Below, piece after piece: positions 2,410 through 63,716 of a stretch of 64,000 bases of DNA. Position numbers and translations under genes: made by a program. Position 1 is the first letter of the stretch; each line of letters starts with the position of its first letter. The DNA comes from Okamejei kenojei (taxonomy: Eukaryota), in NCBI GenBank assembly GCA_035221665.1, contig CM069163.1, forward strand, positions 20,026,001 through 20,090,000. Reading direction: 5' to 3'. The notes beneath the pieces are model-generated. The model made no database searches. It saw only the letters and a program-made list of their open reading frames with translations, and had not been told where the DNA came from.

Positions 2410-2461
2410 GCTTTGAAGAATATGCTGTACTTGGCCCAGCACGAAGCCCCAAACACAGAAG
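2410..2461 (+). CDS. XPR1: XPR1-like exon 2 (SPX): [17 protein letters not shown](V)
   Basis: Polypyrimidine tract + aacag acceptor, 52 nt, G|gtaaga donor; matches human AFKDMLYSAQDQAPSVE. Confidence 0.9.
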
Positions 2462-5400
2462 GTAAGAGGGTATTAGCTACAAGGAGGGGTTGGACAAACT
2501 TGCATTGTTTTCTCCAGAACACTGGAGGTTGAGGGGAGACCCGAGAGAAGTCTAGAAAATTATGAGAGGCGTAGATAGGGTTGACAGTCAGAACCTTAAT
2601 CCCAGGGTCGAAATGTCAAAGGCTAGAGGGCATAGCTTTAAATTAAGAGGGGCAAAGTTTAAAGGAGATGTGTATGGCAAGTTCCTACACAGACCCAGAT
2701 GGGTGCCTGGAACACACTGCCAGGAGGTGTTGGTGGATGCAGTTAAGTTATGGGTATTTAAGTGGTGTTTAGATAGACCCATTGATAAGCAGGCAATGGT
2801 GGGATGTGGACCCCACGCAGCAAATGGGACAAGTTTATTTTGGCACAATGCTCGGCCAAAGACATTGTGGGCCAAAGCGCCCCTACCTATGCTGTACTTT
2901 TCTATGTTCTGTGTGAGTGATGTTACTATGAGATGGAACGGCAGCATCCTCCTGAACAGATGTTGCTTCCACTATCTTGAATAGAATATCCTGACTTGCA
3001 CTTGGAATTATGCCAACTTTACTCAGTATCCTGGACATTAATATTTAATGCTGAAATATGATTTAATTTATATATAATGAAAGAGGGCTTAGCTTCAACA
3101 TTGTTCCAACAGTCAAACAGTGTTTAATATTATTCCAAATAATGTTTTCAAAATTTACCAACTAGGATATTATACTCTGTGCTCATCAACTCTCTCGCCA
3201 AAACATGCGATTTTCCTCCCATCTTAAAATTAACTTTAACACCTGAGTTGGTTCAGTTAAAATTTGGTCTGATTATGTTCTTATGAGGGAGAAATCGCAA
3301 TATTTCACAGTGTTAAAGGTGATATAATGTTAACTGTTCTTGTTCTTCACTTGACTTTCAACTGTGTTGAAAAAATACAGGTCATGATGAATAATTAACC
3401 TGCTGAATATGTTCCTATCAGGCAAGGGTGATGCTGAAGGATTTAATTAATAATCACGTTGTGCACAGCTTGAAATATGAAATGATTCTTTCTCATCAAT
3501 AATTTATTGAGGCAAAATGTTGTTCCACTGTTTGTGCTTACATTCCCAATGATATCTGTGCGCAGCAAGAGAAACAGTACCGCAAACAGTGTGCTGGTCA
3601 CGAACATTCCCAAGAGGGAGTTTGTAGAAGTAACATTTTATTAAAATGAAGCAATCATTCCTGTTCACCCTTTTTTCACGAGTTTGGAACCCCATTTAAT
3701 AACAAACTGCTAAGAGGAAATGCAAGACAATTGAATGGGGATCTGCTTCATAGAGATCCGGTGGTACGCTAAACAGCACAGGAGGTGAATTGACAAGAAT
3801 CAAGAAGCAAGAGTATTAATTGTCATATGTACTGGCATACAGTGAAATTCTTACGTGCTGCAGCTTAACAGGCCTGTTATAATGTAACAGCATCTGGTTA
3901 GTATATAATAGTCAAGTAACAATAAATTAATAATCATCATACCAGGTAACCATAATAGTGCAAAAATAAAAAGCCCATGGTGCAACCAAGGACACAAACC
4001 AGGGAGATCATATTTGCTGAGGTTAGTGTAGGAAGGATCTGCAGATGCTGATTTAAACCAAAGATGGACATAAAAAGCTGGAGTAACACAGCGGGACAGG
4101 CAACATCTCTGGAGAGAAGGAATGGGTGACGTTTCGGGTCAAGACACTTCTTCAGACTGGTTAGGGATAAGGGAAACGAGAGATATAGACAATGATGTAG
4201 AGAGATAAAGAACCATGAATGAAAGATATGCAAAAAAGTAACGATGATATAGGAAACAGGTCATTGTTAGCTGTTTGTTGGGTGAAAACGAGAAGCTGGT
4301 GTGACCTGGGTAGGGGAGAGATAGAGAGAGAATGCTACGGTTACTTGAAGTTAGAAAAATCAATATTCATACCACTGGGCTGTAAGCTGCCCAAGCAAAA
4401 TATGAGATGCTGTTCTTCCAATTTGCGTTTAGTCTCACTCCGACAATGGAGGAAACCCAAGACAGAAAGGTCTGTGGGAATGGGAAGGAGAATTAAAGTA
4501 TTTAGCAACTGGAAAGTTAGTGTTGTGAGGTTAGTGTTGTGCAGTGTTCAAGAGCCTGATGATTGATGGGAAGAAGTTGTTCTTGAACCTAGAGGTTATG
4601 GTTCTCAGACTCCTGTCCCTTCTTCCCAATGGTAATAGTGCAATGAGCACGTGGTCAGGGTGATGTTGTTCTGTGATGATATTGGCTGCCGTTTATGTGG
4701 CTCATGTCAGAGGACCAAAAGTAGGCCATTTGGCTTGGAATCTACTCCACCATTCAATCATGGCTGATCTATCTACCCCCTCTCAACACCATTCTCCTGC
4801 CTTCATCCCATAACCTTTTACACCCTTACTAATCAAGAACCCGTCAATCTCCGTCTTAAAATACCCAATAATGGCCTCCACAGCCATCTGTGGCACTGAC
4901 TTCCACAGATTCACCACTCACTGACTAAAGAAATTCCTCATCTTTCTAAAGGTAAATCCTTTTATTATAAAAGATCCTAAAGATCCTTTCCATATAGGTT
5001 AGTACCTGTGATGAACCAAGCAGTGTGCACCACTATTCCTGGTAATAACACTGTCTCCTACTGCTGTTTTGCCCGGTTCTACTCTGGTCATGGTTCAGTT
5101 GGTCATTCTGGGGGCCTTCAGATGGCAGTGGTAAGCTTCCTGTGTGTTCCTCTTGGCCCATTTCAACACCATGAAGATTCTCTTCCAGAATCTATTTTCT
5201 TTTGGCTGCGTTTGTGATCTGTAAATAAATAGAGATTTAATCTTTTGGAAGTATCAGTGGGTGGTGAAATAGGTTGTTCTTCTACTGCAAGTAATATGTT
5301 GAAATTACAAGGAAAGTAAAGCCATTACAAAGGCTGGATGTTCATCACTCCCAGGGAACTGAGGTTTACAGCCTGTGTTCTTTTCTGGAAAATGCTAACA

Positions 5401-8400
5401 ATATCTTCTCAAGACATGCAAGAAATGCTGAGCAATAGGCAAAGTGCTGGAATAACTCAACGGGTCAGGCAGCATCTGTGGAGGGAATATACAGACAACA
5501 CTCCATTCCATCCCCAGATGCTGCCTGATGCACTGAGTTCTTCCAACACTTGGTGCGTTGCTCAAGATTCTAGCATCTACAGCTCCTTGCTTCCCCATAT
5601 AAGAAATACTGTGAAATTTAGGAAGCTATGACGGTACAAAGAGATGAGGTTTATGTGAATTGAAGCTTCACAGAGTTCAAGAACTTTCAGAAAATTCGCC
5701 TGACCAGATATAATTGTCACCAGTGGACTGCAGGTTTAGGGAGAGGTAGTGGAAGGAGCTGGTTAGTTCAAAGTGTCCAAAGGTTTGAAACATGGAAAGC
5801 ATTGAACAGAGTTTACAGCACTGTCTCAACTGTAGCTGTTGGCAAATATGCTACTTCTTTACAAACATGGAGGTAGAAAATCTTTTATTTTGCTCAATTC
5901 TCCAGAGTCAAGAGTGTTTTATTGTCATATGTTCCAGATGGGACAATTAAATTCTTACTTGCTGCAGCACAACAGAATATGTGAATATGTAAACATAGTA
6001 CATAACGGGGGAAGAGAAAAAAAAGAAAAAGTTCAATAAATAACAAATATAGTGCAATAATAATACAGTATTTTGCAGTTCAGAGCTTATTCGTTGTTGT
6101 GTTTAATGGCCTGATGGTTGTAGGGATGAAGCCGTTCCTGAACCTGGTCGTTACAGTTTTCAGGCTCCTGTACCTTCTTCCTGATGGCAAAGGTGACAAA
6201 TTCTATTTGTCAAACAATTATTTGTGACCGATTCATTTGCTTCATTGGCAAACCTTCTGCCTTTAACTCACTGCATAAGAAAGAGGCCCATTGCTAGTTT
6301 AATGTCCTGTCATTCTGCGAGTTATATGAGGATTATTGTTGCTTTTGGGGCACACTGTCAAAGCACCCCATAGGGTATCAAGAGGAGTCTGGGCTTAATT
6401 CACTTTGTCAATAAGAAATGTCGATGCAACAAGAATCTACTGTTTCTGCTCACGCATTGATGAATAGATGTGCCTGTCCATGTTTTACGCTGGGACTAGT
6501 CAGCTCTCCAACTGATACAGGGCGATGAAAGCATCGAACACTGGAGCCGGCAATTAATCAGAGTTTGATTAAATTGATTGTTACATCTTGCAGCATGACA
6601 GGCAAAGGCTTAAGACTAATATTACTACAAAACAAAGTTAAATTCATAATGGTTTATTGTTTAGGTTTATTATTCTCGTGTGTACTGAGGTACAGTGACC
6701 ATCTTTTATTTGTGTGCTAGCCAAACAAATCCAATATTATACATGAAAACAGTCAAGCCAAATGCAAGTACTATAGGTAGAGCAGAGAGAAAGATACCAG
6801 AATGCAGAATATAGTTTGCAGCATTGTAGAGTAACAGTTCCAGGGAAAAAGTCCTACATTATTGGTTGACTTCAGGACAATTAAGCCAATGGAAGGAGAT
6901 AAACAGCACTGAGGATAAAAAGTTTTAGCCCAATTCTCCACAACATCCCCGCTAATTTTTGTCCCTAAGCCAGATCTTTTAAAAAAAAGGCCCGATTAGC
7001 TCATTGCTGTTTGTGTGGTCCAATCCTACACAATGTGGCCACTACAATCCCTGCATTCCAGCAGCGGTTACCTTTCCAAAATATTTCATTTGCCACAAAA
7101 GCACTTCATAAATGAAAGTCTTTTCCTTTCTTTTGCCTTTCGTTCTTTCCAACTTGTCAAGTCTGGATCAGATAGAACAGTGCTCAACGCAGTTTAATAA
7201 ATTAAAGGAGATAGGAATACAAGAGTTTAAGGACAAAATGTCACCTCTGAGAATGGTTGGATTAGTTTGAATGGCAGCTCTACTTACCCTTGCCGCAGCT
7301 GGGGAGCGTCCTGAGGTGGGAATGAGATATTGAAGGCTCAAGTAACTTGGCAGGGGTCACAAAATGTAAAACGTGAACAGGACCTACCTTGTTCACAGCT
7401 TGAGACAGCATGTCAGATTTGTAATTCACAGTGAGTTTTATTGACAGCGACAATATAATCAATCAAATAATGCTTTCTGGTGATTGCGACCCATTTACAT
7501 TTATAAAGACGCAGATTTATCGAACTTTGATTATTGCCCTGGTATGTATTCTGTTCTACAACATATCAGTGGTACTGTTACTGATGGGTGCCATGATCAT
7601 GATTAGGGAAAGCCTTTGTGTTTTAAATAATACACTATGTACTTGGAAAATGGCTCCATATTCTAAGAACATTTCCTGGATGCATTTAAAATGATTGATT
7701 TGGATGAATTCAAATGCATTTATCGAAATGCCAACTTGTGGCTTTAATTGTGTTGTGATGGTCATCCAAACTTCTGAAAATTTACAGGAAGCATTAATTA
7801 CAATCTGATCCAATGTCTGCTCTTAATAAATTGCTCTGGAACTTTGAAAGATAACATCTATTCTATCAGTTTTATTTTCCACATACACATTCACTTCCCC
7901 CACTGAATGCAGGTCATTCATAAAATAATACTGCAGATGCCAGATATCCGAAATAGTGGAAATACTCAACAGATCAGGCAACATTTGTGGAGCAGAAAAC
8001 AGAGTTAACATTCTGGGTCAATGAATTTTCATCATAGTTCGTTCAATGTCTCCATATGTAGGGTTCAGGAGGCGCGGAACAAGATGTTACCTATATCTTA
8101 CATTCATCATCAATCTCAATCATCATCAAAAGTAGGAACATACTGTGTGCTCGTTCTGCTTTCCATAACTTTCTTTGATATCAATCACATTTATCAATCT
8201 GTACCACAGCAACTCCAGTAAAGTGGACTGTCAAACTTGCCAAATCCAGCCTGGCCGTTAGGTCCAGCCTGGTGCCTGCCTCTGTTGTACTTGTCGTGGA
8301 GTTTGGGATGGACAATGTTCGAATTGCCTTTTCCAGATTCCACGTACAGGACTTCCTAAGTCAGTCGAATACTGTCCGTGCTAGCCAGGGCTACTGACTG

Positions 8401-9477
8401 CCATTTTACTGTTAGTGCTTAGTCAGACCACTATGTCCAGAGGTAGCATGGTGTCAAATTTATTAAACTTCTCAGCACACTGATGATACAGGACACAGCA
8501 GATCATAACAGCACCGTAGAGTCACAGAGTCATACATCACGAAAACAGGCCCTTCAGCCCGACTCAACCATGCCAATCAAGATGCCCAACTAATCCCGTT
8601 TGCCCTTGGTTGACCCAGTGATGCAGTGGTTGAGTTGCTGCCTTGCAATGCCAGAGATCCAGGTTCGATCATAACTACATATGCTGTCTGTACGGAGTTT
8701 GCACGTTCTCCGTGAGACTGCGTGGGCTTTCTCCTGGTAATCTGGTTTCCTCCCACATTCCAAAGGCAGATGGGTTTATAAGTTAAAATTGACCTTGGTA
8801 AACTGTCCCTTAACCCATTCCTTTGCATCCTGTATAAAGATACAAAGCTTCTGGACGGGAATATTCGATATAATTTCTAAAAACACTTAAAATTCAATTG
8901 GAGTCAGATGTAAAATTAATAATTTTAGGGATGTCAGAGGGATGTTCTAAATTAAAGACATTTCAAAGACGTTTCCTTGATTACAGCTTAATAACCGCGA
9001 AAAAACTTATACTCAAATTCTGGAAAAAGATAACAGTTCCCACAATGAAGATGTGGATCACAGAAATGACTGAGACACTACATTTAGAAAAAATAAGGCT
9101 CGTTTTGGCTGATAAATCAGACCAATTCTCCAAAACATGGTCTCCTTTCACTGAATCTCTTCAACAATAGAATAGTCGAACACAAATTTAAAACAGACAC
9201 TTGGGATGGGTGAGCGGTGGGGGGGGGGGGGGGGGGGGGAGTATAGTGGGGCATATCTCCGTCTTCTTTTTTGTCTCTCACTTTTTCGGCAGTTCAGGGG
9301 CCTTTTCTTCTCTCTTTTTTGTATTTTTCTTCTTTCTCTTCACTCTTTCCTTTATACTTTTTTTTCCCCGATTCCCTTATCAATTTATAAAATGTTAAAA
9401 ATGAAGCTGTACGTAAATTGTATAATTGTTAAGCCGATTGCTTTATTCTTGTACAATTGCTTCTAATAAAATAAACA

Positions 9478-9518
<41 letters not shown>

Positions 9519-12500
9519 CGGTCCCTAATGTGTAGGATAGAACTAGTGTACGGGTAATCATTGGTCAGCGAGGTCTTGGTGAGCTGAAGGGCCAGTTTCC
9601 ATGCTGCATTTCCAAACTATATGTATACCCTTCCAAACCTATCCTATCCATGTACTTGTCCAAATGTATTTTTAGTTGTTATTGTACTTGAGTCAAATAC
9701 TTCTTCTGGCAAACTTGGAATTTTGCAGATACTTTGTTAATCATCCTCCACCAGATTCCAACCTCTGGACAGCCACTGCGGAAGCTGCTGAATTTCAGCA
9801 GACTTGGGGATCTTTCCATCTGTAGATATTTTATACAAGGCTTGAACTATTTTCCAAGGAATTAAATGTTGCATGGGCAACGGAATTCTGTCCACATTGC
9901 AGATTCTGAGGAAGGGCAGCAAATACTGGGATGTCAGCCCATCACAGGTTCACTATTCCACTTTGCAGAGATTTGCTTTTGGCTTTGAATCAGTGGAGGT
10001 TTCAGAATCTGTCTGGGAACACCGATAGTGGCAACATGGGTGGTAACTGCAAGAACTGCAATTAAGACGGGGGCAGGGTCTTTGAGCGCATACCTTTGCC
10101 AGATAGAAACATAGAAAATAGGTGCAGGAGTAGGCCATTCGGCCTTTCGAGCCTGCACCGCCATTCAATATGATCATGGCTGATCATCCAACTCAGTATC
10201 CCGTACCTGCCTTTTCTCCATACCCCCTAATCCCTTTAGCCACAAGGGCCACATCTAACTCCCTCTTAAATATAGCCAATAAACTGGCCTCAACTACCTT
10301 CTGTGGCAGAGAATTCCACAGATTCACCACTCTGTGTGAAAAATGATACCCCCTTCAGGTCGAATTATCTTGAATATTCTTAAAAATCAAATCAAATAAA
10401 TGGAATAAAATAAACTTAAAACGTCGCAGAGTTTGGATGCAAATCTCAAACTGGACCATTAATAGTTTACATGTTCCAGAACTTCACTTGATATCAATAG
10501 CTTTCACATTTACCAGTGTTCCCCATAGCAACTCCAGTAACATTAATTAATCTCAACATTAACTCCCGATGAAGCATAAATTATTGATTTCCTGCCTCGG
10601 GTAATAAAGTCATTCCCACAGCCAAATGCTGTGCTTATAATTATTTATATAACCTGTTTTCAAGTGCAGTTACAATAAGTGACTAATAAAATTAAAAGTT
10701 GCATTTCTCAAGTCATCAAGATGTTAGCAAATGAAGTGCGGATGCATTTATAATGTATTGATTGAACGATTTGTTCTGAAACTCTGAATAAACTCAGATC
10801 ATTTCCTTCAACCGTGTTCACATTGTAAGTCAGTGAGACGCAACTAGCATTCTAGACATTAGTTGTTCTTAAATATAATTCACTCCTTAAAGGTGCAAAA
10901 TGTCATGCATCACCGATTAAGCACAAGGCACTTGTAATGGCACAAAACAACCCTAAAAAGCACACACATTATGCAATCATATTGCAGGCTGGAGTTCTCA
11001 TCTTAGATCTATGCAAATCCAAATGCATAAATTGTGAATATTTCTCTTATCCCTTATCAGATCATTCATTTTTGCTTAATGCAGTCTATAAGCAGAGACT
11101 ATTAGCACCCCTGTCCTTTACCAATAACTTTAAGTTTAATAATATAGTTTACCAAGGTTATGATCTAATGAATAGTTCTATTCGTTTAACCTCCACCACA
11201 AAGTAGGATTTTTAGTAATACATTCATCCTGTGCCACTTTGTACCAATCTTCAGCTTCTCTTAATCCACTGCTATGTATTTCTAAGGTAAATAAAAATGC
11301 TGGAGAAACTCAGCGGGTGAGGCAGCATCTATGGAGCGAAGGAATAGGTGACGAACTATGTATTTCTAATTCAGTTTACTGAAGTGCACCACATTGCTTG
11401 TAGGTCGTGCATTAGTTCATTGTTCAGGGTAACTTTAATTTCCTGAATCAACAGGCAAAACCCAAATGTTTCAATTACTAGAGGATAGAGAGAAACTTAT
11501 AAAGTTAACGATTACAAAACAGTCTGATTAAAGCTTTCTTTACAAGCGTTTGACATTAATCCACACCTGTTCCTTACTCCTCCATAAATGCTGCAATCTC
11601 ATCTCCCTTTCCAGGTTTTCTAAACAGGTTCCAGCACCATGACCTTTACTTAACTCCCGCGGTAGTCACGGTAGGTTGCAATTCCACTGACGGCTTGTTC
11701 CTCTTCTGAGCAAACATGCAGGCAGATCTTCCCATGTCTGAATCCTCCTTAAGAACAAGAATAAAACAGTGCTAATCAAAATACTTCACCAATAGCTATT
11801 GGTTCTTCATTTTATATAGTGATTAATGTCAGCACAGCACTGACACCTTCAGTTTTCCTTGTTTAAAGTATGATTTGTGTTGGTATGTCATGCTGGTTGT
11901 CATTAACTCCCCAGGTTGTAGGACAAACATGATGCCAAAATGTTCGGAATAATAACCATTAGCTCTCCTATTTGTACCGTGTGATTAAATAGTTCTATTT
12001 ATGCAGAGTAATGAATGTTATTGTGCACAACTGATGCCCACCAGAAGTCCTTGATCTGCTGTGCGCCAATATGTGTGTCAGACAAAAGGTTCACCAGTTG
12101 TTCTATTTGTAGATTGCAAATTATTGCACATGTTGAATGTGCCCGAGACATTTCCCACCCCGGTCATTCCTCCTTCTCCCCACATCCGTCAGGCAGAAGA
12201 TACAGAAGCTTGAAAGTGTGCACCGCCACACTCAGGAACAGTTTCTTCCCCTCTGTTATCGGGCTCCTGAATGGTCCTTCCATAAGCTGGTGTACTGTCT
12301 GATTCTGGACTTTGGTCAATGGAACCATTGTCTCTGGAACTGTTACCCGACAATGCTGAGAACTATATTCTGCACTCTGTATCTTCCCCTTCACTCTACC
12401 TATTGAACTTGAGTTTAGCTTGATTGCATTTATGTATAGTATTATCTGAAGAAGGGTCTCGACCCAAAACGTCACCCATTCCTTCTCTCCAGAGATACTG

Positions 12501-15500
12501 CCTGTCCCGCTGAGTTACTCCAGCTTTTTGTGTCTATCTTTGGCTTAAACCAGCATCTGCAGTTCCTTCCTACACGTATTATCTGATATGATTGGACAGC
12601 ATGCAAGTCAAAGCTTTTCACTGTATCTCAGTACACATGACTATAAAAAACTAAAACCTAAATGTAATCTCTCATTTGTATAATCGAAAAAAAACATTAG
12701 TGGTTGTCTCAGGTATACATGAAGTGATGTTTGAACAAATAGATGAACGTGGAAAGAGAAACGGAGATGCTGACTGACCTGCTGAGTATTTCCAGCATTT
12801 TTTTAAATGACAAATTTTCAGCATCTGAAGTTTTTAATTGATTTCCAACAAGATTAATGCAGCTGGTACAGTCCATTTACAAACTGAAACAAAACACAAA
12901 TTGCTGTAGGGACTCAACGGGTCAGGCAGCAACTGTGGAGAGAATGGAGAGGCAATGTTTTAGTTCAGGGCCCTGATTAGTCTGAAGGAACTTGACCCTA
13001 AACGTCATCTGCCCATTCCCTCCACAGATCCCGCCTGACCCACTGAGTTCCTCCAGCAGTTTGTGTTTTGCTCAAGATTCCAGCATCTGCAGTTCATTGT
13101 GTCTCCACTAAATGAAACAGTTTGATGAATGTGGTTTAAGTACTATTATAAAGGCATCAGTTGTTTATAGTGTGTTGAATGCCAATGCCTAACATTGGTA
13201 CCCCTACAATGCAATCCTAATCAGTTTGTAACACAGGAATAAATCAGATTTCCTTTTTATAGAGTGCATGGCAAATCAGTACTCTGCTCAATGTGACAAA
13301 TGTTAGTTCTTAATTTTGGTGTTTTTATTGTCTCTTGAATGGGTTTCTGACCACATGGTTAACTCTATTACCAGGACAACCCACATCCACCTTGGCTCAT
13401 TATTCTTCGCCTGCTGAAGCTTTCATCCATTCCTGTACATTCTCCACACTAGATGGGTCCTGGCTGTCTTCCCTTCCCACCTTATACATACATGCACATA
13501 CAAGCTTATCCATAACCTTGCTGCACACACCAACCATAGCATCATCCTATTGCTCCTACACTCACTGACTGACATTGCTTCCCATCCATCCAAACCTTCA
13601 TTTAAAACGTTTCATTTTCAAATTGGCTGTAGATGCACGTTTCTATACTGCCATACGTAACACTGTCCTATTTAGACAGTGAGATAAATACCAATGACCA
13701 AAACTAGCTCGCAACTACTTTCTTATTTACACAGTGGTGTTGGTTTGTAACACTGACATCAGTTTTGCCTCTGTTGATAGATAATGGCAGGTGTCATTTT
13801 GGTACGTTGCTGTGTGGGGAGTTATACAGTATAGAATTGGGCCCTTTGGTCCAGTGCATCTGCACTGACCTCCATACACATCTATACTAATCTCACATGG
13901 GTGCATTCATTCCATATCCTGTGTATTTTACCCATTCACTACCTCGTGATGCCTCTTAATTGTTGTTGCTGTCCCTTCCTCTGCAACCTTCTCTGGTACT
14001 TTATTCCAGATACCAACCACTCCATGTAAAGAAATACCTCTTAGATCCCCTTTAATCCTTCCACCTCTCATCTTCAAACCTATGCCCTCTAGTTTTAGAT
14101 AACCATATCATGAGAAGTGGACTCTGGCTATCTACACTATCCATGCCTCACAATGTAATCTTATGCCCCTGTCCCACTTAGGAAACCTGAACGGAAACCT
14201 CTGGCCAGATCTTGCGCCCCACCCAAGGTTTCCGTGTTTTTGTCCTCCGGCAACCACCTTCAACTAGCATCGCAACCGGCTTTGACTAAAAAAATAACGA
14301 ATTTTAAAACGGAAACCACTTTCGACCATTAGGGAGACTGAGAAAAACCTCCGGGAACCGCACGGAAACCTTGGGTGGGGCGCAATGTCTCTAGAGGTTT
14401 CCGTTCAGGTTTTCTAAGTGGGACTGGGGGCATAACTCTATCATGCCATCTCTCAATATCTGTCGCTCTAGGGGAAACAGTCTTTGCCTAACCAATCCTT
14501 CCTGATAACTCAAGCTCTCCCATCCTTGCATATCTGTTATACACCCTCTTGCAGTGTAACCACATCAATATGTATGACTAGCACAAATCAGAATTCTTAC
14601 CCATACTGTGCTGTGACTGTTAATGGTGTCAGTTACCTGGACACACGGAGCATGACAAATATCAGTCTACGGGCTTGATGTAACATTTGACACCAGGATG
14701 TTATCTGGGCTTGAGTTATAGGGATAGGTTGCATAAGCACATGAAGAATGTGTCAGCATACAAAAATACTTTCAATGCGTGATTTAGCCCAGGCTTGCGG
14801 TAAAAATAACAGCAGGCACTCGCTGTAAATGGAAGTGCATATGACAAATATAACAGCAGGCACTCGCTGTAAATGACACAAACTGATCAGCAGATTGCTC
14901 GTGTATTTCCAGTTTTTAAAAGCTTCACTACAACAGAATCTCACCCATCAAATCAGCATGGAAGGTCTTGGCAGGGCATGACATAACTGTCCCTCTGTGT
15001 CTCGCCTCCACTTAACTCGCCAGAAACGACCAGATCTTGTCTATTCCAATAAGTAAATGTTCAAAACTCTGATAAGTATTAATTACTCCAAGCCACCCCT
15101 CTGGCATTGAGGCCAACTTCTACATGTTATCACGTTACTGCAGAAATTAATTGGTGCAGATATTTAAAATATCTTAAATACATATATTTTAATCCTCTTT
15201 CATTCATTAAGATCTTAATAAGTTGTTAACCTTCCTGTTGGTCTACGGACACATCGATCGTTTTGTGAGCCAACCAAAAGCAACATCTCTTCCACACTGG
15301 AGCAGAGGAGAGTTGCTGCCTCACAGCATTAGGGCCCTGGGATCGATTCTGACTTCAGCTGCTGTCCATGTGGAGTTTGCACGTTCCCCCTGTGACCGCC
15401 TGGATTTCCTCTGGATGCTCCGGTTTTCTCCCACATCCCAAAGACATGCAAATTTGTAGGTTAACCAAATTTGTAGGTTAATTGGCCTTGGTAAACTACT

Positions 15501-18500
15501 CTTTGTATGTAGGTAGTGGATGCATAAATGGGCAATGTAGAACTAGTGTGAATGGGTAATTGATGGTCAGTTTGGACTTGGTGGGCCAACAGGTCTGTTT
15601 CCATGCTGTTTCTCTAAAACTAAAACCAAAATTAAACTGCCCCACAGGGTTCCTTCCGAAACTCACTGGACAGCTCTGCTGACTTGGTGGCCCAGGCTTC
15701 TGCAGTCAGCCTCGGCAGCAGTCTCAGAGGGCAGCACTCTCTGGCGAGAAGGTTGAGCATTTAAATCTGCTCCAGAGACCGTTTCACAAAACTCCCCACA
15801 GATGCTCCAAAGTTCAATGCCAAGGAAGAGCTGTCTTCCCCAAAGTGCCATCCATTGGATGCATTGTTAAACCTACCTCCAAAGTGAACACAAATGATCC
15901 CATAGCAGCATCTCAGAGAAGGCCAGATGTTGTACCCCTGAAATCCAGGCCAACATTTATCTCTCACTCAACATTGCCAACATGCTATAATGTTCCATGT
16001 ATCATAGAACATAGAGCGGCACAGCACAGGAAGAGGCTCTTTGGCCCACAATGAACATGATTTACAATAAAAATAGATTTACAATAAAAACCAATCACAT
16101 CCTGTCCACATCCCTCCATATCCACGCCCCGATCTAAAACTCTTTTAAATGCCACTATCATGCCTGCCTCATTTAAGCTCATTTAATATATAATACGAAT
16201 CCTTTTCCTTTCAACTCCTTTCACCACCGTACACCTGATAGCACGCAGCTGCTTTGGGGCACAAGTATTTCCATGGAGACCAGAGGCAGGTTTTAAACCC
16301 CAGCTGTTTGACTGGACGGAGGAACAATGGCACCTCATCCCACCTCAGCTGTTTGACCCACATTGTGGTGTGTAGTGCACGTCATGATGCTAAACGAGAG
16401 GTTGTTCTTTGTCATTATTCACCAGTGCTCAGTCTGCATTGTACAACCTGGAGTTGGCAACAGAGTTTAACCTCGGCACTGACTCAAGCATTGATGGCTG
16501 TGTGGGGATCTATTTCATGTTGTATTATTAATAAGAGGCAAGGTTTTATTTTGTGCAGTCAGTATTTATTTATCATGAAACAAATAGTTGTCTGGTTAAA
16601 GACAATGCTCCACTTTAGGGGGTTGAACAAAGGATCTGCTGCTGAACACCTGCCTTTGCAATTGGAGTCACCACTGCCACTTTTCCCAGGGACTAACAGC
16701 CCTGTAATGAAGGCAGAACCAAAGTGCTGGAGGAACTCAGCAGCTCAGGCGACATCTCTGGAGAACATGGATAGGTGACGTTTCAGGTTGTGATTATGGG
16801 GGTTGGGGAGAAGAAAGCTGGAAAAGGGAAGAGGCAGGACAAAGCATGGCAGGTAATAAATTGACACATGCTGGGGGGGGGGGGGGGGGGGGGGGGGTGA
16901 CAGGCAGATGGTTGGCCTTTAATCCTTTGTCTCGACCCAAAACGTCACCTATCCGTGTTTTCCACAGACGCTGCCTGACGTCTGAGTTACTCCAGAGCTT
17001 TGAGTCCTGTAAAGAAGGTAACAAGGGCAATTACAGTCACCACAACTTTATGTAGCACCTTTAACATGGTAAAAAGCACCGCAAGAGTACTAAGATTACA
17101 TTTGGCAACAAGACTGCGGAGGACTACTTGGGTGGGTGAGCAAAAGCTGAATGGAAGTTCTGTAAGAAAGAGAGAGTGCCTTTGATGGTGTCAGTAGAAA
17201 GGAAACCTATGGTTTAATAGATGATTAAAGGGCCTGTCCCACTTTCACGACCTAATTCACGACCTTTTTTACTCGTGGACATTTTTCATCATTTAAAATC
17301 CCTAGTCAGGCAATGATAAACATGGAAATAGGTTTCAAGTCAGTTTTCATAATGACTTAAATAAACATAAATATTCTCCCTAAGAATTGAACTAAATGCG
17401 TGATTCCCACAGGGGAAGCAGTTGGAAGAGTGTCCACACGGTCTTTAAGATCAGAAAAGAGCCTAGGTGGGTTAAGATGGTTCAAATATGCAGCCAATAT
17501 CAAACCTTGGCCATGCTCTCATCTCACTACCAGAAGGTGGTACAGGAGCCTGAGAACCAGGTGACCACCAGATTCAAGCACAGCTTCTTTCCAGTGACCA
17601 TCAGACTCTTAAACACTGCACAACACTAACCACTACCCCCACAACTATCATCTTCTATGGATTGTGTCTTTGGTTGAATGACGAACTTCAGTTTTGCACG
17701 ATTTTTGGTTAAGTAGTATTATGGTTAATTTATTGTACCACTGATTATTACATATTTTTCCTGTGTTATTGTGTTAACGGGCCTGATAAGGAAAAACAGA
17801 ATGTTATTGTTCCATTGTCAGTACATGTGACAATAAATCAGTCTTGACTGCTGCCTTGAGGGTGATGCCAAAACATAAAGCTATGTTTACGATAGTTCTC
17901 AGAGATTTCAGGAGAAACAGGGGAAATATGGAAACCGCAATCAATAAAAATAACTTGCAATTGTGTGGCACCCTTGCCCTCTGGTGTTTTGCCTGTAAAG
18001 AGAGGGAGAGGGTTTGGGGCTCAGAATAAATGTGTAGGAAATGGAAACAAATAGTCTGAAGGGTCTCGACCGGAAATGTCACCAATTCCATCTCTCCAGA
18101 GTTGAGAGCTGAGTTACTCCAGCGTTTTGTGTCTATCTTAGGAAATGGAAAAAATATGTGTGGCGCTCCATCAAAAATGGCAAAGGAAAGAAAAGTTTCC
18201 AGAAATGGGAGAAGGTCTTATCTTAAGAAAAGTTGGTGTAATTGAGAAAAGGGTTGGTGCCCTTACAGGAGGCAGGGTTGGATGAGGTACAGGTGGGATA
18301 CCAATATCTCTTGGTGCTCTTATAAAATATGTCAGTGGCAAGTTCCTCTCCTGAGATGGAGGCAGAGAGATCAAGATAAAGAAGAGTCAGAGATTGGCCG
18401 GGTGAATTTGAGGGCAGGGTGGAAGTAGGTGGAGAAGATGAGGGAGTTGACGAATTCTGTATGAGAGCAGGAAGCAGCACCAATGCAGGGGCTGATGCAG

Positions 18501-21500
18501 AGGAGAATGCTCGGGGGTGGGTTTATGCTGGGATCGGCTTGAAACCAAGGACTGTTCCACATGGCCAACAAAACGACAGGTGTAGCTAAGGTCCAAGCAA
18601 CTGCTTTGATTTATAGGAAGTGGGGGAGAAACATCAAAAGGGTTGGTGTTGAGGCAAGGACAAGTTTTGCTAGGTGAGTGAGGGTATTAGCGGGAGAAAC
18701 AGGTTGGGCCTTTGCTAATACAGTCACTTGGGAAACCAATTGGCTGAAGGGAAAATCTCCAAAACAGCAAAGGAATAATGATGATGACATCTGTATTAAT
18801 AATGTTAGTTAAGAGGTAAATATTTGCTAGGATGCAGGATAAAATTCCCCAGCTCCTCCCAAAAAGTGTTATGGAATAATTTACATCCACCCGGGAAGGC
18901 AGATGGAACAGAGGGTTTGATTTAACTGAAAACTGAAAAATTGCACTTTCAACAATGCAGTAATTCCTCATGTTTTATTGTTTTAATCTTCAAATATTGT
19001 GCGCAACGGTCAACAAATGGGTATTGGATTCACCGCTTCCAGTGTCAGAGATCAGGGATCACCCACGGAGCAGAGGCTAACAACCGATGGGAGATGGAGT
19101 CTCTTTCTCAGATGCCTGGGTTGCGCACGAAGATGACAACTTGTATCGGCTTCTTCTCTGGTGGCAGTCCGCCACCTGTTTAAGTTATTGGTTTCGATTT
19201 AAGTATGCCTCAGTATAACACCACTGTTACTTAGCATTCTTCACTGTACTGTGCTTTCAAACAAAATCTATTGCGACAATTTTGTAAATAACGTTCTTCT
19301 TCCATCCCCCACTGTGGTCCCTATTGTAAGCAATCTGTCNNNNNNNNNNNNNNNNNNNNNNNNNNNNNNNNNNNNNNNNNNNNNNNNNNNNNNNNNNNNN
19401 NNNNNNNNNNNNNNNNNNNNNNNNNNNNNNNNNNNNNNNNNNNNNNNNNNNNNNNNNNNNNNNNNNNNNNNNNNNNNNNNNNNNNNNNNNNNNNNNNNNN
19501 NNNNNNNNNNNNNNNNNNNNNNNNNNNNNNNNNNNNNNNNNNNNNNNNNNNNNNNNNNNNNNNNNNNGCTGGCTTTTAAGAGGCCTTTAGATAGGAATAG
19601 AGAGATATGGAACACGTACAGGCATCAAGTTCGCCACGGACATTGTGGGCTAAAGGGCCTGTTCCTATGCAGTACTGTTTTATGTCCTCTGTGTGATCTC
19701 TCCACCTCTACTTCTTGGTTGATTTAAGCACAAAGAGGTTTCATAAGGCAATTAGACAATTGCAATTAAGGAAGTAAAATCTTATAAAATTATTATTATA
19801 AATAAAATTAGAATTCAGTTAATAGAATTGTGAAATATTCAACTGAAGGAATGCCCTTGCAACATATTAAGGTAATATTTTGGAGCTCATGAACTTAAAG
19901 ATTAATAATGATTTAGTACGCCATAGAAAATTGACCTAAAACTTGTACGTTAAGCCACAATATTCTCAGGGATAAAAATTGAAAACAATCAGACGACCAA
20001 ATCACTGAGGAAGCAGGTAGACTGACCACCAGATACTCAAGTAGACAACTGATCTTTAGCTAATGTCAAAGCAAATATAAACACAGGAAAGAAATATAAA
20101 GGCATGAGATGTTAAACTTCCTCTCATATGGCTCATTTGCTAATGCTTATGCTAAACCAAGGTCTTTCAATTGGTGAAAATTTGCCGGTATAGACTCGAT
20201 GGGCCAAAGGGCCTGTTTGCATGCTGCAATTTTCAATTAATAGGTTTGATCAGTTGGGTAGAATACACTTGGGCAGTGTACACTTGGAACAGTGCCATCC
20301 CAGTGAAATAGACAGAGACTTCTGTATCCAGTTCTACAAAGTAACTCAAGGAACGTGGGCAAATTGGAGTCATTTCCAACTGACAGGTGGAACTGGATAA
20401 ACATAACGAGCAGAGGCAGCGTTGGAAGATACTCATGGTTAATAGGACAATATGGGATCAATAGCTTTCCACAAATAAAGCCTTTCCAAGTTATCCGAAA
20501 AACAGGCTGAAGGGTAGTTGGTGTCCGAGGGAATGCTATCAATCCCGTTAGAAGGAGAGAACAAAAGTAAAAAACAGAAAAACCCCACAAAATACTGAAA
20601 GCACTCAACAGGTCAGACATCATCTGTTGAAAAAAGATAGAGTTAATGTCCCATATTCATTCTGACAAACATGTCCCATTTTGTCCTTTGATTCAAGATG
20701 TGTGATGTCACAGATTAGTGATGCATGTAAAATTCCCAATATTAACGTTTTATAAAGCTTTCATTTCGCCTAATTTCCTTTGACAACTTTTCTGTGTTTA
20801 TCTCCTCAGTTTCAGAACCTGCAGTTATTCAACGATATTACGCGTCACTGGAAGAACAATTCTTTCAGATAAGTGAGAATGAATTAACCAAAATAAATAC
20901 ATTTTATGCAGGTAAATTCATGATTTTATTTTATTTTTTATATTCTTTGTCTGTGTTGTGAAATGAGGCATTCGGAGGGACAGATTTGTTTAGCAACCAA
21001 TTGGAATTTATGCGTCAAGTTGGTGTGGGAAGGTGGAGTTGAGGCTGAGATCAAATTCGACATGATTTCACCATATAGAACATACATCCAAAGGATTGTA
21101 AGGTTGACATCTACTGCTTTTTGTGCTCTCATTGCTGAGGGAGTCTCCAGCGCTGAGAATTGTACCATGTTAAACAAAGCAGAGCCCAGTGCCAAAAGTC
21201 ACAACCATAACATTGAGAGACAAATGTATGGCAATTAGTTACTGGGCCATCAGTTCATTTCAATAGGTCTAACTAGACCAAATCCGATTCACCACTTAAT
21301 CTTTTCACTGCTCTTGGTTATAATTGGTACTCTCCCAGTCTCTGCACTTCGGGGGTTAAAGACTGAGGCAGAGCTCAAATCACCGATGAAGAACTTTGTT
21401 GAAGTTAAAAACAGTGGCATTGAGCCAATAAAGGACTTCTGAATGAAACAAAAAAAGTGTTTAGAGAAACTCAGCAGGTCAGGCAGCATCTGTGGAGGAA

Positions 21501-45500: not shown

Positions 45501-45786
45501 ATCTTGTCCATGCTGACCAAGTTGGCGTATTGGACTTGTCCCATTTGCCTGCTGCATTTGGCACCTAGCTCTCTAAACCCTTCCTATCCATATATCTGTC
45601 CAAATGTCTTAAAAGTCACAATTGTATGATCAACATATGTCAAGATCATATAATGTAATTTGGGAAAAACTGACAATTGAAGGATTTTGCTTCAAACCAA
45701 TTCATTCCCTTTCACTAACTGTTGTGTGTCTGTTCTTTAGAGTCAAAAGCTGGGAAACGAAAGTTCACATTGAAGAGATGGAGTGA
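2410..45786 (+). CDS. XPR1: XPR1/SLC53A1-like SPX-EXS phosphate exporter, spliced CDS, 5'-partial: join(2410..2461,20810..20911,22988..23205,26000..26149,27708..27791,30229..30310,31645..31832,33406..33585,34413..34581,35503..35697,37024..37196,39818..39954,41535..41744,45741..45786)
   Basis: 14 exons read manually, each with an AG acceptor and GT (one GC) donor. Phases are compatible; total 1986 nt = 661 aa + stop. Motifs KILKKYDK (SPX), [19 protein letters not shown] and [17 protein letters not shown] (EXS) match XPR1. Likely a paralog rather than the strict ortholog. Confidence 0.93.
2467..2910 (+). mobile_element. CR1-clade LINE 3' fragment immediately after the exon 2 donor
   Basis: [11 protein letters not shown].., [27 protein letters not shown]; same family as 23345..24000, 41080-41460 and 37620-37940. 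Confidence 0.8.
4028..4515 (-). mobile_element. Penelope-like 3' fragment inserted in a Rex/Babar remnant
   Basis: Minus strand encodes [25 protein letters not shown], followed by the same terminal repeat as 52312..; GTTAGTGT duplicated at the flanks. Confidence 0.82.
8814..9515 (+). mobile_element. 5'-truncated L1/Tx1-clade LINE (ORF2 C-terminus, 3' UTR, polyA/(TA)n tail)
   Basis: [39 protein letters not shown] typical of fish L1 ORF2 end; G-tract, AATAAA, A-tail; imperfect TSD AAACTGTCCCTTAA / AAACGGTCCCTAA. Confidence 0.85.
10103..10340 (-). mobile_element. Young CR1/L2-type LINE 3' end
   Basis: atagaaacatagaaaataggtgcaggagtaggccattcggc.. repeated at ~4720-4970, 40070-40370 and 44895-44980. 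Confidence 0.7.
12140..12660 (+). mobile_element. Rex/Babar-type LINE 3' end interrupted by a Penelope terminal repeat (12445-12575)
   Basis: [35 protein letters not shown]; GTATTATCTGA duplicated around the inner insert. Related copies at ~200-560, 5900-6200, 17520-17840, 28070-28520, 50670-50960, 53040-53390. Confidence 0.75.
14164..14432. mobile_element. PIF/Harbinger-like MITE (long TIRs)
   Basis: ~70-bp imperfect TIRs starting TGCCCCTGTCCCACTT; TTA/TAA flanks; splits a CR1 fragment. Confidence 0.8.
14806..14875 (+). repeat. 26-bp direct duplication ATAACAGCAGGCACTCGCTGTAAATG
   Basis: Copies at 14806-14831 and 14850-14875. Confidence 0.9.
18215..18700 (-). mobile_element. Degenerate Penelope-like reverse transcriptase fragment
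   Basis: Frameshifted pieces [53 protein letters not shown]. Confidence 0.75.
18720..18975 (-). mobile_element. Ancient Deu-domain SINE remnant (SacSINE1/AmnSINE-like)
   Basis: Minus strand ..GGTGGATGTAAATTATTCCATAACACT..GGGGAATTTTATCCTGCATCCTAGCAAATATTTACCTC resembles the recalled Deu-domain consensus; second copy ~15735-15985(+), tails at ~6995-7120 and 49985-50120. Confidence 0.55.
19340..19567. other. Assembly gap (228 N)
   Basis: Run of N. Confidence 1.
20810..20911 (+). CDS. XPR1: XPR1-like exon 3 (SPX): [33 protein letters not shown]
   Basis: ctcctcag acceptor, 102 nt, G|gtaaat donor; matches ..[27 protein letters not shown]. Confidence 0.93.
22321..22542. mobile_element. Inverted pair of Penelope terminal repeats with ~16-bp TSD
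   Basis: Arms are reverse complements; flanks GAAGGGAATTTTATGT (22305-22320) and GAAGGGAGTTTTATAT (22543-22558). Confidence 0.85.
22641..22837. mobile_element. Inverted pair of Penelope terminal repeats with perfect 15-bp TSD
   Basis: CAAGTTATTAATCAT at 22626-22640 and 22838-22852. Confidence 0.88.
22988..23205 (+). CDS. XPR1: XPR1-like exon 4 (SPX): [18 protein letters not shown]...[20 protein letters not shown]
   Basis: tcttcag acceptor, CAG|gtatat donor; both ends nearly identical to XPR1. Confidence 0.95.
23345..24000 (-). mobile_element. CR1-clade LINE 3' fragment
   Basis: [44 protein letters not shown], then the typical 3' tail. Confidence 0.85.
26000..26149 (+). CDS. XPR1: XPR1-like exon 5 (SPX lysine cluster): [16 protein letters not shown]...[11 protein letters not shown]
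   Basis: 150 nt, ttccag acceptor, GAG|gtaagt donor; lies inside ORF 25907..26344. Confidence 0.95.
27708..27791 (+). CDS. XPR1: XPR1-like exon 6: [28 protein letters not shown]
   Basis: 84 nt, cacag acceptor, CAG|gtcagg donor; [16 protein letters not shown] motif. Confidence 0.93.
30229..30310 (+). CDS. XPR1: XPR1-like exon 7 (TM1): [27 protein letters not shown]
   Basis: 82 nt, cccccag acceptor, G|gtaagc donor. Confidence 0.93.
30625..30660 (-). ncRNA. Candidate minimal type I hammerhead ribozyme in a Penelope terminal repeat
   Basis: Minus strand reads CUGAAGA-a-GGGUCucGACCC-GAAAC-GUC; helix I pairing is weak. Confidence 0.55.
31378..31477. repeat. Perfect 35-bp inverted repeat with 30-nt spacer
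   Basis: GGAAACTCAGATGGGGATTTATTTTTAAACTAAAA (31378-31412) and its exact reverse complement (31443-31477). Confidence 0.95.
31645..31832 (+). CDS. XPR1: XPR1-like exon 8: ..[53 protein letters not shown]
   Basis: ttcctctag acceptor, GAG|gtaagt donor; strong XPR1 motif match. Confidence 0.95.
32242..32558 (+). mobile_element. Full-length tRNA-derived SINE (HE1/V-SINE-like)
   Basis: Pol III A box TGGCGTAGCGG (32255) and B box GGTTCGATCCC (32308), central ttcggtttcctcccacactccaaagac core, LINE-like tail. Other copies at ~1920-2240(-), 8615-9620(+, split), 15295-15630(+), 25610-25830(-), 38130-38430(-), 58365-58665(-). Confidence 0.85.
33077..33315. mobile_element. PIF/Harbinger-like MITE
   Basis: TIR AGGGCCTGTTCCACTTACATGACCTTTACAGGTGAC and its inverse; internal palindromes. 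Confidence 0.8.
33406..33585 (+). CDS. XPR1: XPR1-like exon 9: [18 protein letters not shown]...[18 protein letters not shown]
   Basis: 180 nt, tttcag acceptor, CTG|gtaagt donor. Confidence 0.95.
34413..34581 (+). CDS. XPR1: XPR1-like exon 10: [56 protein letters not shown]
   Basis: aaacag acceptor, G|gtgaga donor; [13 protein letters not shown] signature; this frame is not in the ORF track. Confidence 0.95.
35503..35697 (+). CDS. XPR1: XPR1-like exon 11: [34 protein letters not shown]...[22 protein letters not shown]
   Basis: gcacag acceptor; ends at non-canonical donor AAG|GCAAGT. Confidence 0.92.
37024..37196 (+). CDS. XPR1: XPR1-like exon 12: [18 protein letters not shown]...[29 protein letters not shown]
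   Basis: cccttag acceptor, AAA|gtaagt donor. Confidence 0.95.
38504..39078. mobile_element. PIF/Harbinger-like MITE with AT-rich interior
   Basis: ~34-bp TIRs AGGGCCTGTCTCACTTGGCCGTCATTTACGCGAC; TTA/CTA flanks. Confidence 0.8.
39818..39954 (+). CDS. XPR1: XPR1-like exon 13: [46 protein letters not shown]
   Basis: cactag acceptor, AG|gtgaga donor. Confidence 0.94.
41535..41744 (+). CDS. XPR1: XPR1-like exon 14: [31 protein letters not shown]...FSFKRSR
   Basis: ctgcag acceptor; donor AG|gtcagt after 41744, with an alternative in-frame donor after 41738. Confidence 0.92.
42270..43260 (+). mobile_element. Highly degraded Penelope-like remnant
   Basis: C/T-rich sequence with residual RT-like peptide ([12 protein letters not shown]) and terminal-repeat trace (ctgatgatagggtttcaacctaaaac..agatgctgcc). 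Confidence 0.45.
45741..45786 (+). CDS. XPR1: XPR1-like terminal exon 15: (R)[14 protein letters not shown]
   Basis: ttctttag acceptor in the correct phase; resembles the human C-terminus SKARDTKVLIEDTDD. Confidence 0.85.
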
Positions 45787-52311: not shown

Positions 52312-52904
52312 GGTACACAAAAGGCTGGAGAAACTCAGCGGGTGCAGCAGCATCTAAGGAGCAAAGGAGATAGGCAATGTTTCGGGTCAAGACCCTTCTT
52401 CAGACTGGTCAGGGATCAGGGAAACGAGAGATATAGACGGTGATGTGGAGAGATAAAGAACAAATAATGAAAGATATGCAAAAAAGTATCGATGATAAAG
52501 GGAACAAGCCATTGGTAAGCTGTTTGTGGTGTGAAAATGAGAAGCTAGTGCGACTAGGGTGGGGGAGGGAGATGGAGAGAGAGGGAATGCTAGGGCCCGA
52601 GGGCTGAGGGAGAGGTGGGAAGGGGCGGAAACAGCAAGGGTTAACAGAATTGAGAAAATTCAATGTTCAAGCCCAGAGGATGCAGACTCCCCAAGCGGAA
52701 TATGAGGTGCTGTTCCTCCAACTTGCGGTGTTGCTCACTCTGGCCGTGGAGGAGGCCCAGGACCGAGAGGTCGGATACGAAATGGGAGGGGGAGTTGAAG
52801 TGCTGAGCCACCGGGAGGTCGGCTTGGTTATTGCGGACCGAGCGGAGGTGTTCAGCGAAACGATCGCCAAGCCTCCGCTTGGTCTCACCGATATAGATCA
52901 TCTC
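52312..52904 (-). mobile_element. 5'-truncated Penelope-like element: GIY-YIG endonuclease C-terminus + 3' terminal repeat
   Basis: [59 protein letters not shown]; 12-bp TSD TCATTATCTGAG at 52300-52311 and 52905-52916. Confidence 0.9.
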
Positions 52905-55874: not shown

Positions 55875-55880
55875 TTTATT
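55875..55880 (-). terminator. Probable NACC2 polyadenylation signal
   Basis: AATAAA on the minus strand followed ~20 nt later by GT-rich TGTTTTTGTGTCT; a second AATAAA at 56212-56217. Confidence 0.55.
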
Positions 55881-61800: not shown

Positions 61801-63222
61801 GTTTTAGTAATGCAAGGAAAAATGAACAATTAATCTTCAACAAAAGATGGGGGGGCGAGGAAATATCAACAATTTTAGAAGATGCTTGCTTGCTGAGAAT
61901 CTTTGATAACATACCAAGTACAATAAAGTGCATCAGAACAGTGTAAGCCAAAATATTCAAGTTGAAAGGGTCAAGGAGCCAAAACCTTCAAATGGCACTT
62001 CTGCATTCTTGAGTTAGGGGAATGGTCAGTTTCATTAGAAAAACAAAAATACTTTCCACGAAGTGCATTTTGCCAACAGTCATATTAATGGCATGGTTTG
62101 TGCCAAAGTTGCTTAAACAAAAAGAGGAACTATTGGGAAAATTCGCGCATCAGCGAACAAATATGTGTTTATACATAAATACTGTCAAGTCAATTAAATA
62201 CTATGGGTGCTCTTTACAATTAACAAAACAATCAGCAAAATATGATGGGATTCTTTCTTGGGAGGAAGAGTAAATCAAATGTCTAAGGCACATGTTTCTG
62301 CATGTATACAATCTAAGTAACATTTTATGACAATCTATGTCTTAAGCATGATCAATGTTCGATCTCGTCACATCATGCAAACCCCCTGCACAACTTAAAC
62401 TTTTATGCTTATTTTAAGGTTTTGCTTGGACGTCTTCCCCATCACGCCTTAGTCCAGCCCAACAGCAGTACCACCCGACTTCAAGGAATGAGTGAAGGGT
62501 TAACACCCAACCTGGGATCCTGAAATCCCTGCCCGCTGACAGGGTAAAATGCTCAAAATGTTACCAGTTGGCATCAATGGAAATCTTCAAAACTCCTTCC
62601 AAGCCCAAAGTCATTCAGTCAATCATTCTTCTTATAGCATCACTTATAGCTACATATTTATATGCAAGTGTCTGAAAAAAATATAACCAGTCAGATTATG
62701 CTAAATATTGATCTTCAACTAGATAAGCTAGTGCACAATCGGTAGTAAACGCGGTCATCATGGTTTGAGAGGAGAGCAGATATTGAGACGTCGATGAGGA
62801 CATAATTTTATTTTAAATTCTACTTTTCAATCCCATCGCAGTTAGTGTGTTTTTAGAAGGTCAGTTCCATTTAAGAGTCTGTTAATGGACCAACAGTGCT
62901 AAAACGACCAGGGCTACATATACCAGCATCAATGGTAACTTTCAAGCCACCTGGCTGCTCCTTAATTGTGACATTTGATGGGGAGAGAATACAAACTGAC
63001 GTCGCCCCGGCAAGACAAGTCGAATTAGAAACATCTATTTCACTGTTAAAAAGGCGTCTTCATTCCTTCATGGCAATTTGTATACAGGTCGGATAAAAGT
63101 CATGTCTTCAGGCAACAGGTACAGGTCAGTGGCTTAATAACACTGCCAAATGTTGAGAGGGTTAGTATGCATGCAAGCCATTTCAATTACCATGATGCGT
63201 TTTCTTTTGACAGTGGAAATCT

Positions 63223-63716
63223 TCACAAGGTCCCTGCATATGTTCCATCCAGTTTCCGCATGGCCGTTTCCGATCTATTATTGGAGGAAGCTTCATCTTG
63301 ATCAAAAGTGGCGCCCGTGTTGGGCGTGTCGGGAGCCAAATTATTAGTGCCAGTAGCTTCTCTTATTACCGACTCTACCATTTCATTCTGTTCAGACGAC
63401 TGGTTGGAGCTGGGGGACTCCACATCTATGCTTGCAGGGTTTGTTCTTTCTCCGAGTACAGTCCCAGGATCACCACGCTTCTCAGCTTGACTATTTTGCT
63501 CAAATGCCAACCCAGTTCCATACAGCCCAGGGTCCAAACTGTCTCCGCCACCTGCATCTCCGATCACAGTGCGGTACACCTCCACCCCGTCAGGCAGCAT
63601 CGATTTAATCTTCGGCAGCCAGCGCTTGCGAACCCGTCGAGCATTAGTGCACATGTCAGCAGCAATCACATTCATCTCACTCTCTTTGAAATTGGGAGCA
63701 AAGTTCTGACAATATA
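63223..63716 (-). CDS. NACC2: NACC2 (BTB-BEN transcriptional repressor), last coding exon, 5'-partial
   Basis: YCQNFAPNFKESEMNVIAADMCTNARRVRKRWLPKIKSMLPDGVEVYRTV (end of BEN domain) and C-terminal GTYAGTL* match NACC2 rather than NACC1; acceptor ttctcctgttttgacag at 63717-63718 on the minus strand. Confidence 0.93.

Follow-up and report, generated by a model that had tools for sequence, protein, structure and literature searches.

An intact second XPR1-family gene beside a NACC gene in the skate Okamejei kenojei, likely born of whole-genome duplication

The stretch of DNA analysed here (the window) comprises 64,000 nucleotides of the skate Okamejei kenojei, positions 20026001-20090000 of contig CM069163.1 (C33). 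On its plus strand it carries a gene related to the phosphate exporter gene XPR1, referred to as XPR2, which is located between UBAC1 (upstream, head-to-head) and a NACC gene (tail-to-tail). A tblastn alignment with a database relative delivered 13 exon blocks, and the exon at 2410 was added separately. The resulting model spans positions 2410-45786 with 14 exons, which yield 1986 nt, i.e. 661 codons and a stop, with no internal stop codon. One further exon of 69 nt, with an ATG start and a GT donor, was identified at C33:20023597-20023665, about 2.4 kb before the first base of the window. The full gene has therefore 15 exons and encodes 684 amino acids. A first-pass annotation of the window had described an intact frame of 14 exons; the frame is indeed intact and the count is valid for the window, while the first exon of the gene lies outside. 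AG was found at all 14 acceptors and GT at 12 of the 13 donors. The remaining donor (35698-35699, past exon 11) is GC, and the corresponding intron of the canonical XPR1 copy described below has GT.

SPX sequence is encoded by exons 2 to 5 (2410-2461, 20810-20911, 22988-23205 and 26000-26149). With the human numbering transferred via a 696-aa mammalian row, whose residues agree with those named in the literature, exon 4 shows C127 where human XPR1 has K129, and exon 5 retains the SPX lysines K158, K161, K162 and K165 and shows S155 where the human protein has R157. Equivalents of R211, K216, R217 and R219 are retained in exon 6 (27708-27791). Exon 7 (30229-30310) covers the region of the first transmembrane (TM) helix, and the EXS domain begins in exon 8 (31645-31832), which aligns to residues 266-318 of human XPR1. 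After exon 9 (33406-33585), exon 10 (34413-34581) contains the equivalents of F391, F394, D398, N401 and S402. Exon 11 (35503-35697), the one followed by the GC donor, retains R459, R466, K482 and Y483 and carries two replacements, R448 to T444 and R472 to D468. Equivalents of W528, D529 and D533 are found in exon 12 (37024-37196), and those of R570, W573 and E600 in exon 13 (39818-39954). Exon 14 (41535-41744) codes for R604, W607 and R611, for the cover loop, in which E622 is replaced by H619, and for a diverged KIDINS220-binding segment. The coding part of exon 15 (45741-45786) ends with a TGA stop, and candidate AATAAA signals are predicted downstream at 46568, 46933, 47293 and 47308. The largest intron is intron 2 (2462-20809, 18.3 kb); it contains the sole run of N of the window (19340-19567), clear of the exons.

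The family assignment is supported by EXS Pfam matches above cut-off, which coincide with exons of the window and are not due to chance, and by SPX (E 1e-29) and EXS (E 3e-111) matches on P0001, a relative 97% identical to XPR2. An exon-wise SPX Pfam search of the genome gave no match at either of the two XPR loci and is uninformative. The AlphaFold2 model, built from 14 sequences, is of too low quality for use, with a mean local confidence (pLDDT) of 51.7 and a template-modelling score (pTM) of 0.38. A dimeric fold with ten TM helices is predicted from the identity of about 60% to mammalian XPR1.

On the minus strand, 63223-63716 is the terminal coding exon of the NACC gene, with the stop at 63223. 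Its open reading frame matches the NACC1 BEN structure (E 1e-16), and the BTB exon is located at C33:20106264-20107199. The two genes converge, as announced by the first-pass annotation, and their stops are about 17.4 kb apart. Atlas searches confirmed the NACC/BTB family and could not distinguish NACC1 from NACC2; by its position and C-terminus the gene is presumably NACC2. A second fragment of UBAC1 matches the UBAC1 UBA structure (E 7e-8), and the first exon presumably belongs to UBAC1 as well.

XPR loci in the skate genome were found on two contigs only, C33 and C10, among 11/11 EXS matches and 23/23 full-protein matches, both searches giving lower bounds. The C10 copy (28.057-28.271 Mb, minus strand) comprises 13 modelled exons plus exon 1, with no internal stop; exon 2 is not included in the model. 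The intron phases of the 13 modelled exons are those of XPR2 exons 3-15. The C10 protein shares 82.3% identity with the mammalian 696-aa XPR1, against 60.6% for XPR2, and 92% with the canonical XPR1 of shark; the two skate copies are 59.1% identical to each other. XPR2 in turn is 97.1% identical to an Amblyraja and 96.6% to a Leucoraja entry, both labelled 'XPR1 homolog', and skate and coelacanth XPR2 share 70%. The C10 copy is the orthologue of XPR1 (SLC53A1), whose clade does not include the window protein. The greater divergence had been noted from the window, and a separate canonical copy and an automatic label for the gene had been anticipated.

A query with the NACC exon detected three loci: C33, C10 at 28.033 Mb (plus strand) and C36 at 5.308 Mb (minus strand). 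On C10, the BTB exon and four more coding exons were matched, which define a third BTB-BEN gene at C10:28024869-28033061 (plus strand). It converges tail-to-tail on the canonical XPR1 and mirrors the arrangement of NACC2 and XPR2 on C33. Human has two NACC genes, so the third one is probably a further ohnologue that was kept, in mirror image to XPR2. Both XPR copies converge on a NACC gene: XPR and NACC were duplicated together as a unit, which makes the argument from paralogous blocks stronger than the first-pass annotation had it. The mirrored losses, of XPR next to NACC2 and of NACC next to XPR1, would be a clear example of ohnologues lost reciprocally. Just upstream of the BTB exon of the third gene (C10:28020001-28022804), broken frames resembling reverse transcriptase, RNase H and integrase were observed, which by their motifs resemble a long-terminal-repeat retroelement. 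In the BTB exon on C36 (about 5318.2 kb, minus strand), the frame changes at a short T run, either an assembly error or a real break.

On C33 the gene order is CAMSAP (19.85 Mb), UBAC1 (19.99-20.01 Mb), XPR2, NACC2, LHX3 (20.28-20.31 Mb) and QSOX (20.35 Mb), all within 0.5 Mb. The partners on C10 are an LHX3/4 paralogue at 6.5 Mb (87%), CAMSAP at 6.8 Mb, XPR1 at 28.1 Mb and QSOX at 35.1 Mb. The paralogue numbers of these neighbours (NACC1/2, QSOX1/2, STX6/10, CAMSAP1-3) are assumed, as are their positions on the human map. With NACC, LHX3/4, QSOX and CAMSAP pairs on both contigs and a common XPR-NACC orientation, the two regions behave as paralogous blocks of the kind expected from a whole-genome duplication. 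The canonical XPR1 had been expected near ACBD6, LHX4 and STX6. It is accompanied by an STX6/10-family gene at C10:28.43 Mb, about 160 kb away (another lies at C36:5.286 Mb), whereas some 22 Mb of the same contig separate it from the LHX4-like gene and some 7 Mb from QSOX. ACBD6 was not located, the four matches of an ACBP search of the genome lying on neither C10 nor C33. A tblastn search (E <= 1) for an XPR remnant around the STX-NACC interval of C36 (5280001-5320000) showed none. Two side observations were made: a second LHX3/4-like LIM exon at C10:6175070-6175274, matched in two pieces (83% and 81%) and separated by about 340 kb from the LHX4-like exon that is intact, is possibly a broken duplicate, and at least two further CAMSAP CKK-domain matches on a fourth contig (C30:34.17-34.80 Mb) perhaps represent a fourth ohnologue with a local duplication.

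In a tree of 55 rows, all 19 candidate XPR2 rows formed one clade (clade B) with 100 in the Shimodaira-Hasegawa-like approximate likelihood ratio test (SH-aLRT). It contains 11 cartilaginous fish including the window protein, coelacanth, reedfish, a caecilian, two salamanders and three frogs. The 26 canonical rows, including the C10 copy and the teleost xpr1a and xpr1b, formed another (clade A, SH-aLRT 99). A careful tree of 24 rows, composed without amphioxus or a named tunicate, recovered XPR2 (100/100) and XPR1 (100/98) within a vertebrate clade (100/100), and both subclades include chondrichthyans and osteichthyans. Their stems measure 0.40 and 0.073 changes per column, thus change on the XPR2 stem was roughly five-fold faster. 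XPR1 and XPR2 separated once the invertebrates had branched off and ahead of the divergence of cartilaginous from bony fish; the XPR2 family member is 450 million years old.

According to one alternative, the window holds the sole XPR1 of the skate, relocated beside NACC2, or a recent copy specific to the lineage. The gene is of the same family and has the same exon structure as XPR1. This explanation was nevertheless refuted, and retains practically no probability, given the canonical XPR1 on C10 and a separate clade that extends across jawed vertebrates, its branching in keeping with the species tree all the way from chimaera to the frogs. It is also very unlikely that XPR2 is a decaying, non-functional duplicate. 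Its long branches and a caecilian model flagged LOW QUALITY would fit such a fate; against it stand the intact frame and splice sites, the 70% identity between skate and coelacanth and pore residues that are invariant in 19 rows.

XPR2 is more widespread than the retention in cartilaginous fish first proposed: the second clade is confirmed, and it reaches coelacanth, reedfish, amphibians and teleosts, which weakens the idea of a cartilage-specific role. The best match fell into clade B for 51 of the 474 proteins examined (84 of 84, the best 120 of 515, the best 120 of 1531 and the best 150 of 7878 in four homologue searches), and the named ones are all non-amniote. No mammal, bird or reptile member was seen among the matches listed; this absence and the human literature make a loss in amniotes likely. 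Divergent proteins from the profile search were traced to an eel (Synaphobranchus), mormyrids, knifefish, anchovy and minnow. Six fast-evolving teleost proteins (P0285, P0287, P0294, P0475, P0313 and P0314) all fell inside the XPR2 clade as sister to reedfish (99-100, in a quick tree with long branches). Of these models, four seem incomplete or irregular, with 443-580 aa. The copy in a minnow, a cypriniform, suggests that zebrafish may have one too. Two proteins with high XPR2-profile scores, Pangasius P0205 and Austrofundulus P0206, are canonical XPR1 by tree and were excluded from the residue counts. P0353, P0412 and P0425 are unnamed and remote; their best match, in clade B, is marginal (31-34% identity), and they were left out of the XPR2 count.

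The tree is compatible with either genome doubling as the source of the pair. Two results stand in the way of a firm assignment to the first one. Over 1000 bootstraps, lamprey grouped with XPR2 in 509, with XPR1 in 391 and outside both in 100, and the approximately unbiased (AU) test does not reject a grouping of XPR1 and XPR2 that excludes lamprey (p 0.348). The C10 block is broken up, its LHX4-like gene, XPR1 and QSOX being spread as given above, a point against the overall reading given below. The equation of C33 with LER31/GGA17 is an assumption of ours from human and chicken synteny. If C33 is LER31, the XPR1/XPR2 split dates to the first genome duplication. The published little-skate chromosome labels favour this date: in the supplementary tables consulted, LER10 (=GGA8) is L/M 1-alpha and LER31 (=GGA17) is M 2-alpha, both listed under linkage group M (SI Table 3), and Leri_10C bears the labels Xpr1-2.1 and Nacc1.1 (SI Table 10; PMC10115646). 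An origin in the second, jawed-vertebrate duplication, or in a small segmental duplication of XPR and NACC on the jawed-vertebrate stem, appears unlikely. It would agree with the AU result, with the single cluster (9 members) found for lamprey XPR and with the quicker evolution typical of beta segments, as described in the sections of PMC10115646 consulted. It is opposed by the same chromosome labels, by the position of lamprey within the XPR1/XPR2 split in 900 of the 1000 bootstraps and by the five C33-C10 paralogue pairs, which are dispersed across 29 Mb of C10.

The residues of the pore and of the inositol phosphate (InsP) sites were assessed with lists from the consulted parts of PMC11933459, PMC11926068, bioRxiv 10.1101/2025.01.17.633679 and PMC12081713. 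XPR2 of the window retains 22 of 24 listed pore residues, and 11 of the 11 which were mutated in human efflux assays (PMC11933459, PMC11926068). All six residues of the inorganic phosphate (Pi) sites 1 and 2 are retained, as is the entire Pi-coordinating set (D398, N401, R459, R466, K482, Y483, W528, R570, W573, R603, R604, W607 and R611). The eight core InsP contacts (K2, K158, K161, K162, K165, R308, K364 and K369) are present as well, together with 14 of 15 invariant InsP sites and with F623, F391, F394, R466 and G621. Because pore residues and core InsP contacts are retained, XPR2 likely exports Pi, a prediction made from sequence.

Several other positions are changed. In skate XPR2, R448 of the outer Pi site is replaced by T, and Y443 is changed as well; R448W is tolerated in human XPR1, according to the parts consulted of the human structure and efflux papers. 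Along with K129, C440 is changed, which leaves C415 without its disulfide partner. R157 is absent from 19/19 XPR2 rows and present in 24/24 XPR1, 2/2 lamprey and 8/8 invertebrate rows. The cover-loop salt bridge is lost on both sides in skate (R472 to D, E622 to H), and within clade B residue 472 is not R in 18/19 rows and residue 622 is Q or H in 18/19. In the KIDINS220-binding segment 631-655, chosen post hoc, 8/18 XPR1-invariant residues are retained, versus 308/386 elsewhere (p 0.0014). As a separate observation, the cover loop and InsP contacts of teleost XPR2 copies are eroded and the pore residues retained. The teleost pore (17/22) is retained above background (p 0.015) and better than the regulatory sites (7/20, p 0.012).

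These changes could be taken to mean that XPR2 works as an exporter without its latch or as a leak channel for Pi, uncoupled partly in skate and largely in teleosts from InsP8, cover loop and KIDINS220, with a basal efflux above that of XPR1. The losses at E622, R472 and R157, the diverged segment 631-655 and the teleost contrast between pore and regulatory sites all agree with it, as does the increased efflux of human XPR1 upon E622A or E622A/F623A mutation (PMC11933459; bioRxiv 10.1101/2025.01.17.633679, parts consulted). In its broader form, a second exporter of non-amniotes would have kept the pore and never gained, or shed, the locks formed by E622-R472, R157 and the KIDINS220 tail, to become in teleosts a largely InsP8-independent Pi channel. 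Both versions are possible, though doubtful. Skate XPR2 still has F623, F391, F394, R466, G621 and nearly all invariant InsP sites; gating persists in invertebrates, which have no such salt bridge; the teleost regulatory sites are at background level (7/20 versus 181/360, p 0.25), which relaxed selection explains equally well; and most of the teleost models seem incomplete or irregular, as mentioned. Selective erosion of the skate regulatory sites was tested too and is unsupported.

The preferred reading is that XPR2 is an intact and ancient sister of XPR1, spread across jawed vertebrates, likely born by whole-genome duplication, with the first round as the more probable one, and predicted to be an inositol-pyrophosphate-gated Pi exporter; we give it a probability of about 0.85. 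An InsP8-type ligand would bind to the retained SPX lysine cluster and the juxtamembrane pocket, upon which the cover loop (619-625) would be released. Pi would then take the route of human XPR1, from R459/R466/R611 to R570/R603/R604 and on to the W573 gate. Lacking the R472-E622 salt bridge and R157, and with segment 631-655 diverged, the protein likely has an altered set-point and partner control. The best reading is thus a skate exporter predicted to be InsP-gated with a shifted set-point, and teleost copies in which the pore would be under selection and the controls relaxed. A number of results weigh against parts of this picture. The skate pore is not significantly more retained than the TM background (20/22 versus 155/187, p 0.54), nor are the regulatory sites more changed than theirs (17/20 kept versus 279/363, p 0.58). 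Invertebrates also have Q, K or R at 622 and no R at 472 (8/8 rows), hence the missing latch may be ancestral. Finally, the fly protein retains a working cover loop, as reported in the parts consulted of bioRxiv 10.1101/2025.01.17.633679.

Compared with human XPR1/SLC53A1, as far as described in the parts consulted of PMC11933459, PMC11926068 and PMC12081713, XPR2 shares the SPX and EXS domains, both Pi sites, the W573 gate, the InsP lysine cluster and the NxCGxF cover loop, and its intron phases are those of the canonical skate copy. It differs by its identity of about 60%, its separate clade and locus and the replacements listed above (R448 to T, R472 to D, E622 to H, R157 to S, K129 to C, no C440, diverged 631-655). 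Drosophila PXo, plant PHO1 and yeast SYG1 are SPX-EXS Pi exporters as well, but fall outside the vertebrate clade; like XPR2, invertebrate members have neither E622 nor R472. Teleost xpr1a and xpr1b are also duplicated XPR1-family genes, but both nest in the XPR1 clade; in the teleosts retaining it, XPR2 makes up a third lineage of greater age. Orthologues are already present in RefSeq and UniRef under automatic names, among them XP_032904677.1 (Amblyraja), XP_064420202.1 (Latimeria) and XP_051787655.1 (Erpetoichthys), with 97% identity for the skate entries. The 'XPR1 homolog' label is shared by canonical fish XPR1, therefore database labels do not separate the paralogues. Cartilaginous fish, coelacanth, amphibians and several teleosts thus have a second family member which databases do not distinguish from XPR1, and studies of fish or amphibian xpr1 may involve an unrecognised paralogue. 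XPR2 offers natural variants at the gating positions debated in cryo-electron microscopy papers (cover loop, InsP8 contacts and KIDINS220 hook), so that gating models are testable by segment swaps. Should the de-regulated reading hold, nature would have provided a series of XPR1 variants with loosened control, and work on xpr1a and xpr1b would have a third paralogue hidden behind it.

Sixty-eight differentially retained ohnologues of cartilaginous fish, such as wnt6b and cspg5, were described in the parts consulted of PMC10115646. XPR2 is of the same evolutionary kind, a copy from genome duplication that sharks and skates have retained and other lineages lost, and it extends both a known family and an already known class by one member. 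It differs by a retention that reaches amphibians and teleosts, and XPR is not named in the parts of that paper examined. No published description of the paralogue was found in a search whose scope did not extend to subscription journals, phylome databases and bioRxiv supplements; the skate supplement may list XPR2.

Three sequencing runs labelled as the same species, two of them probably DNA, gave contigs dominated by repeats, which speak neither for nor against expression of XPR2. Rfam and ARAGORN scans of the window both returned zero matches. Repeat frames that we presume to be of retroposon origin occur in the window at 52641-52904 (minus strand), 8874-9170 (plus strand) and 23730-24068; they have no Pfam match, and similar frames are found in neighbouring loci.

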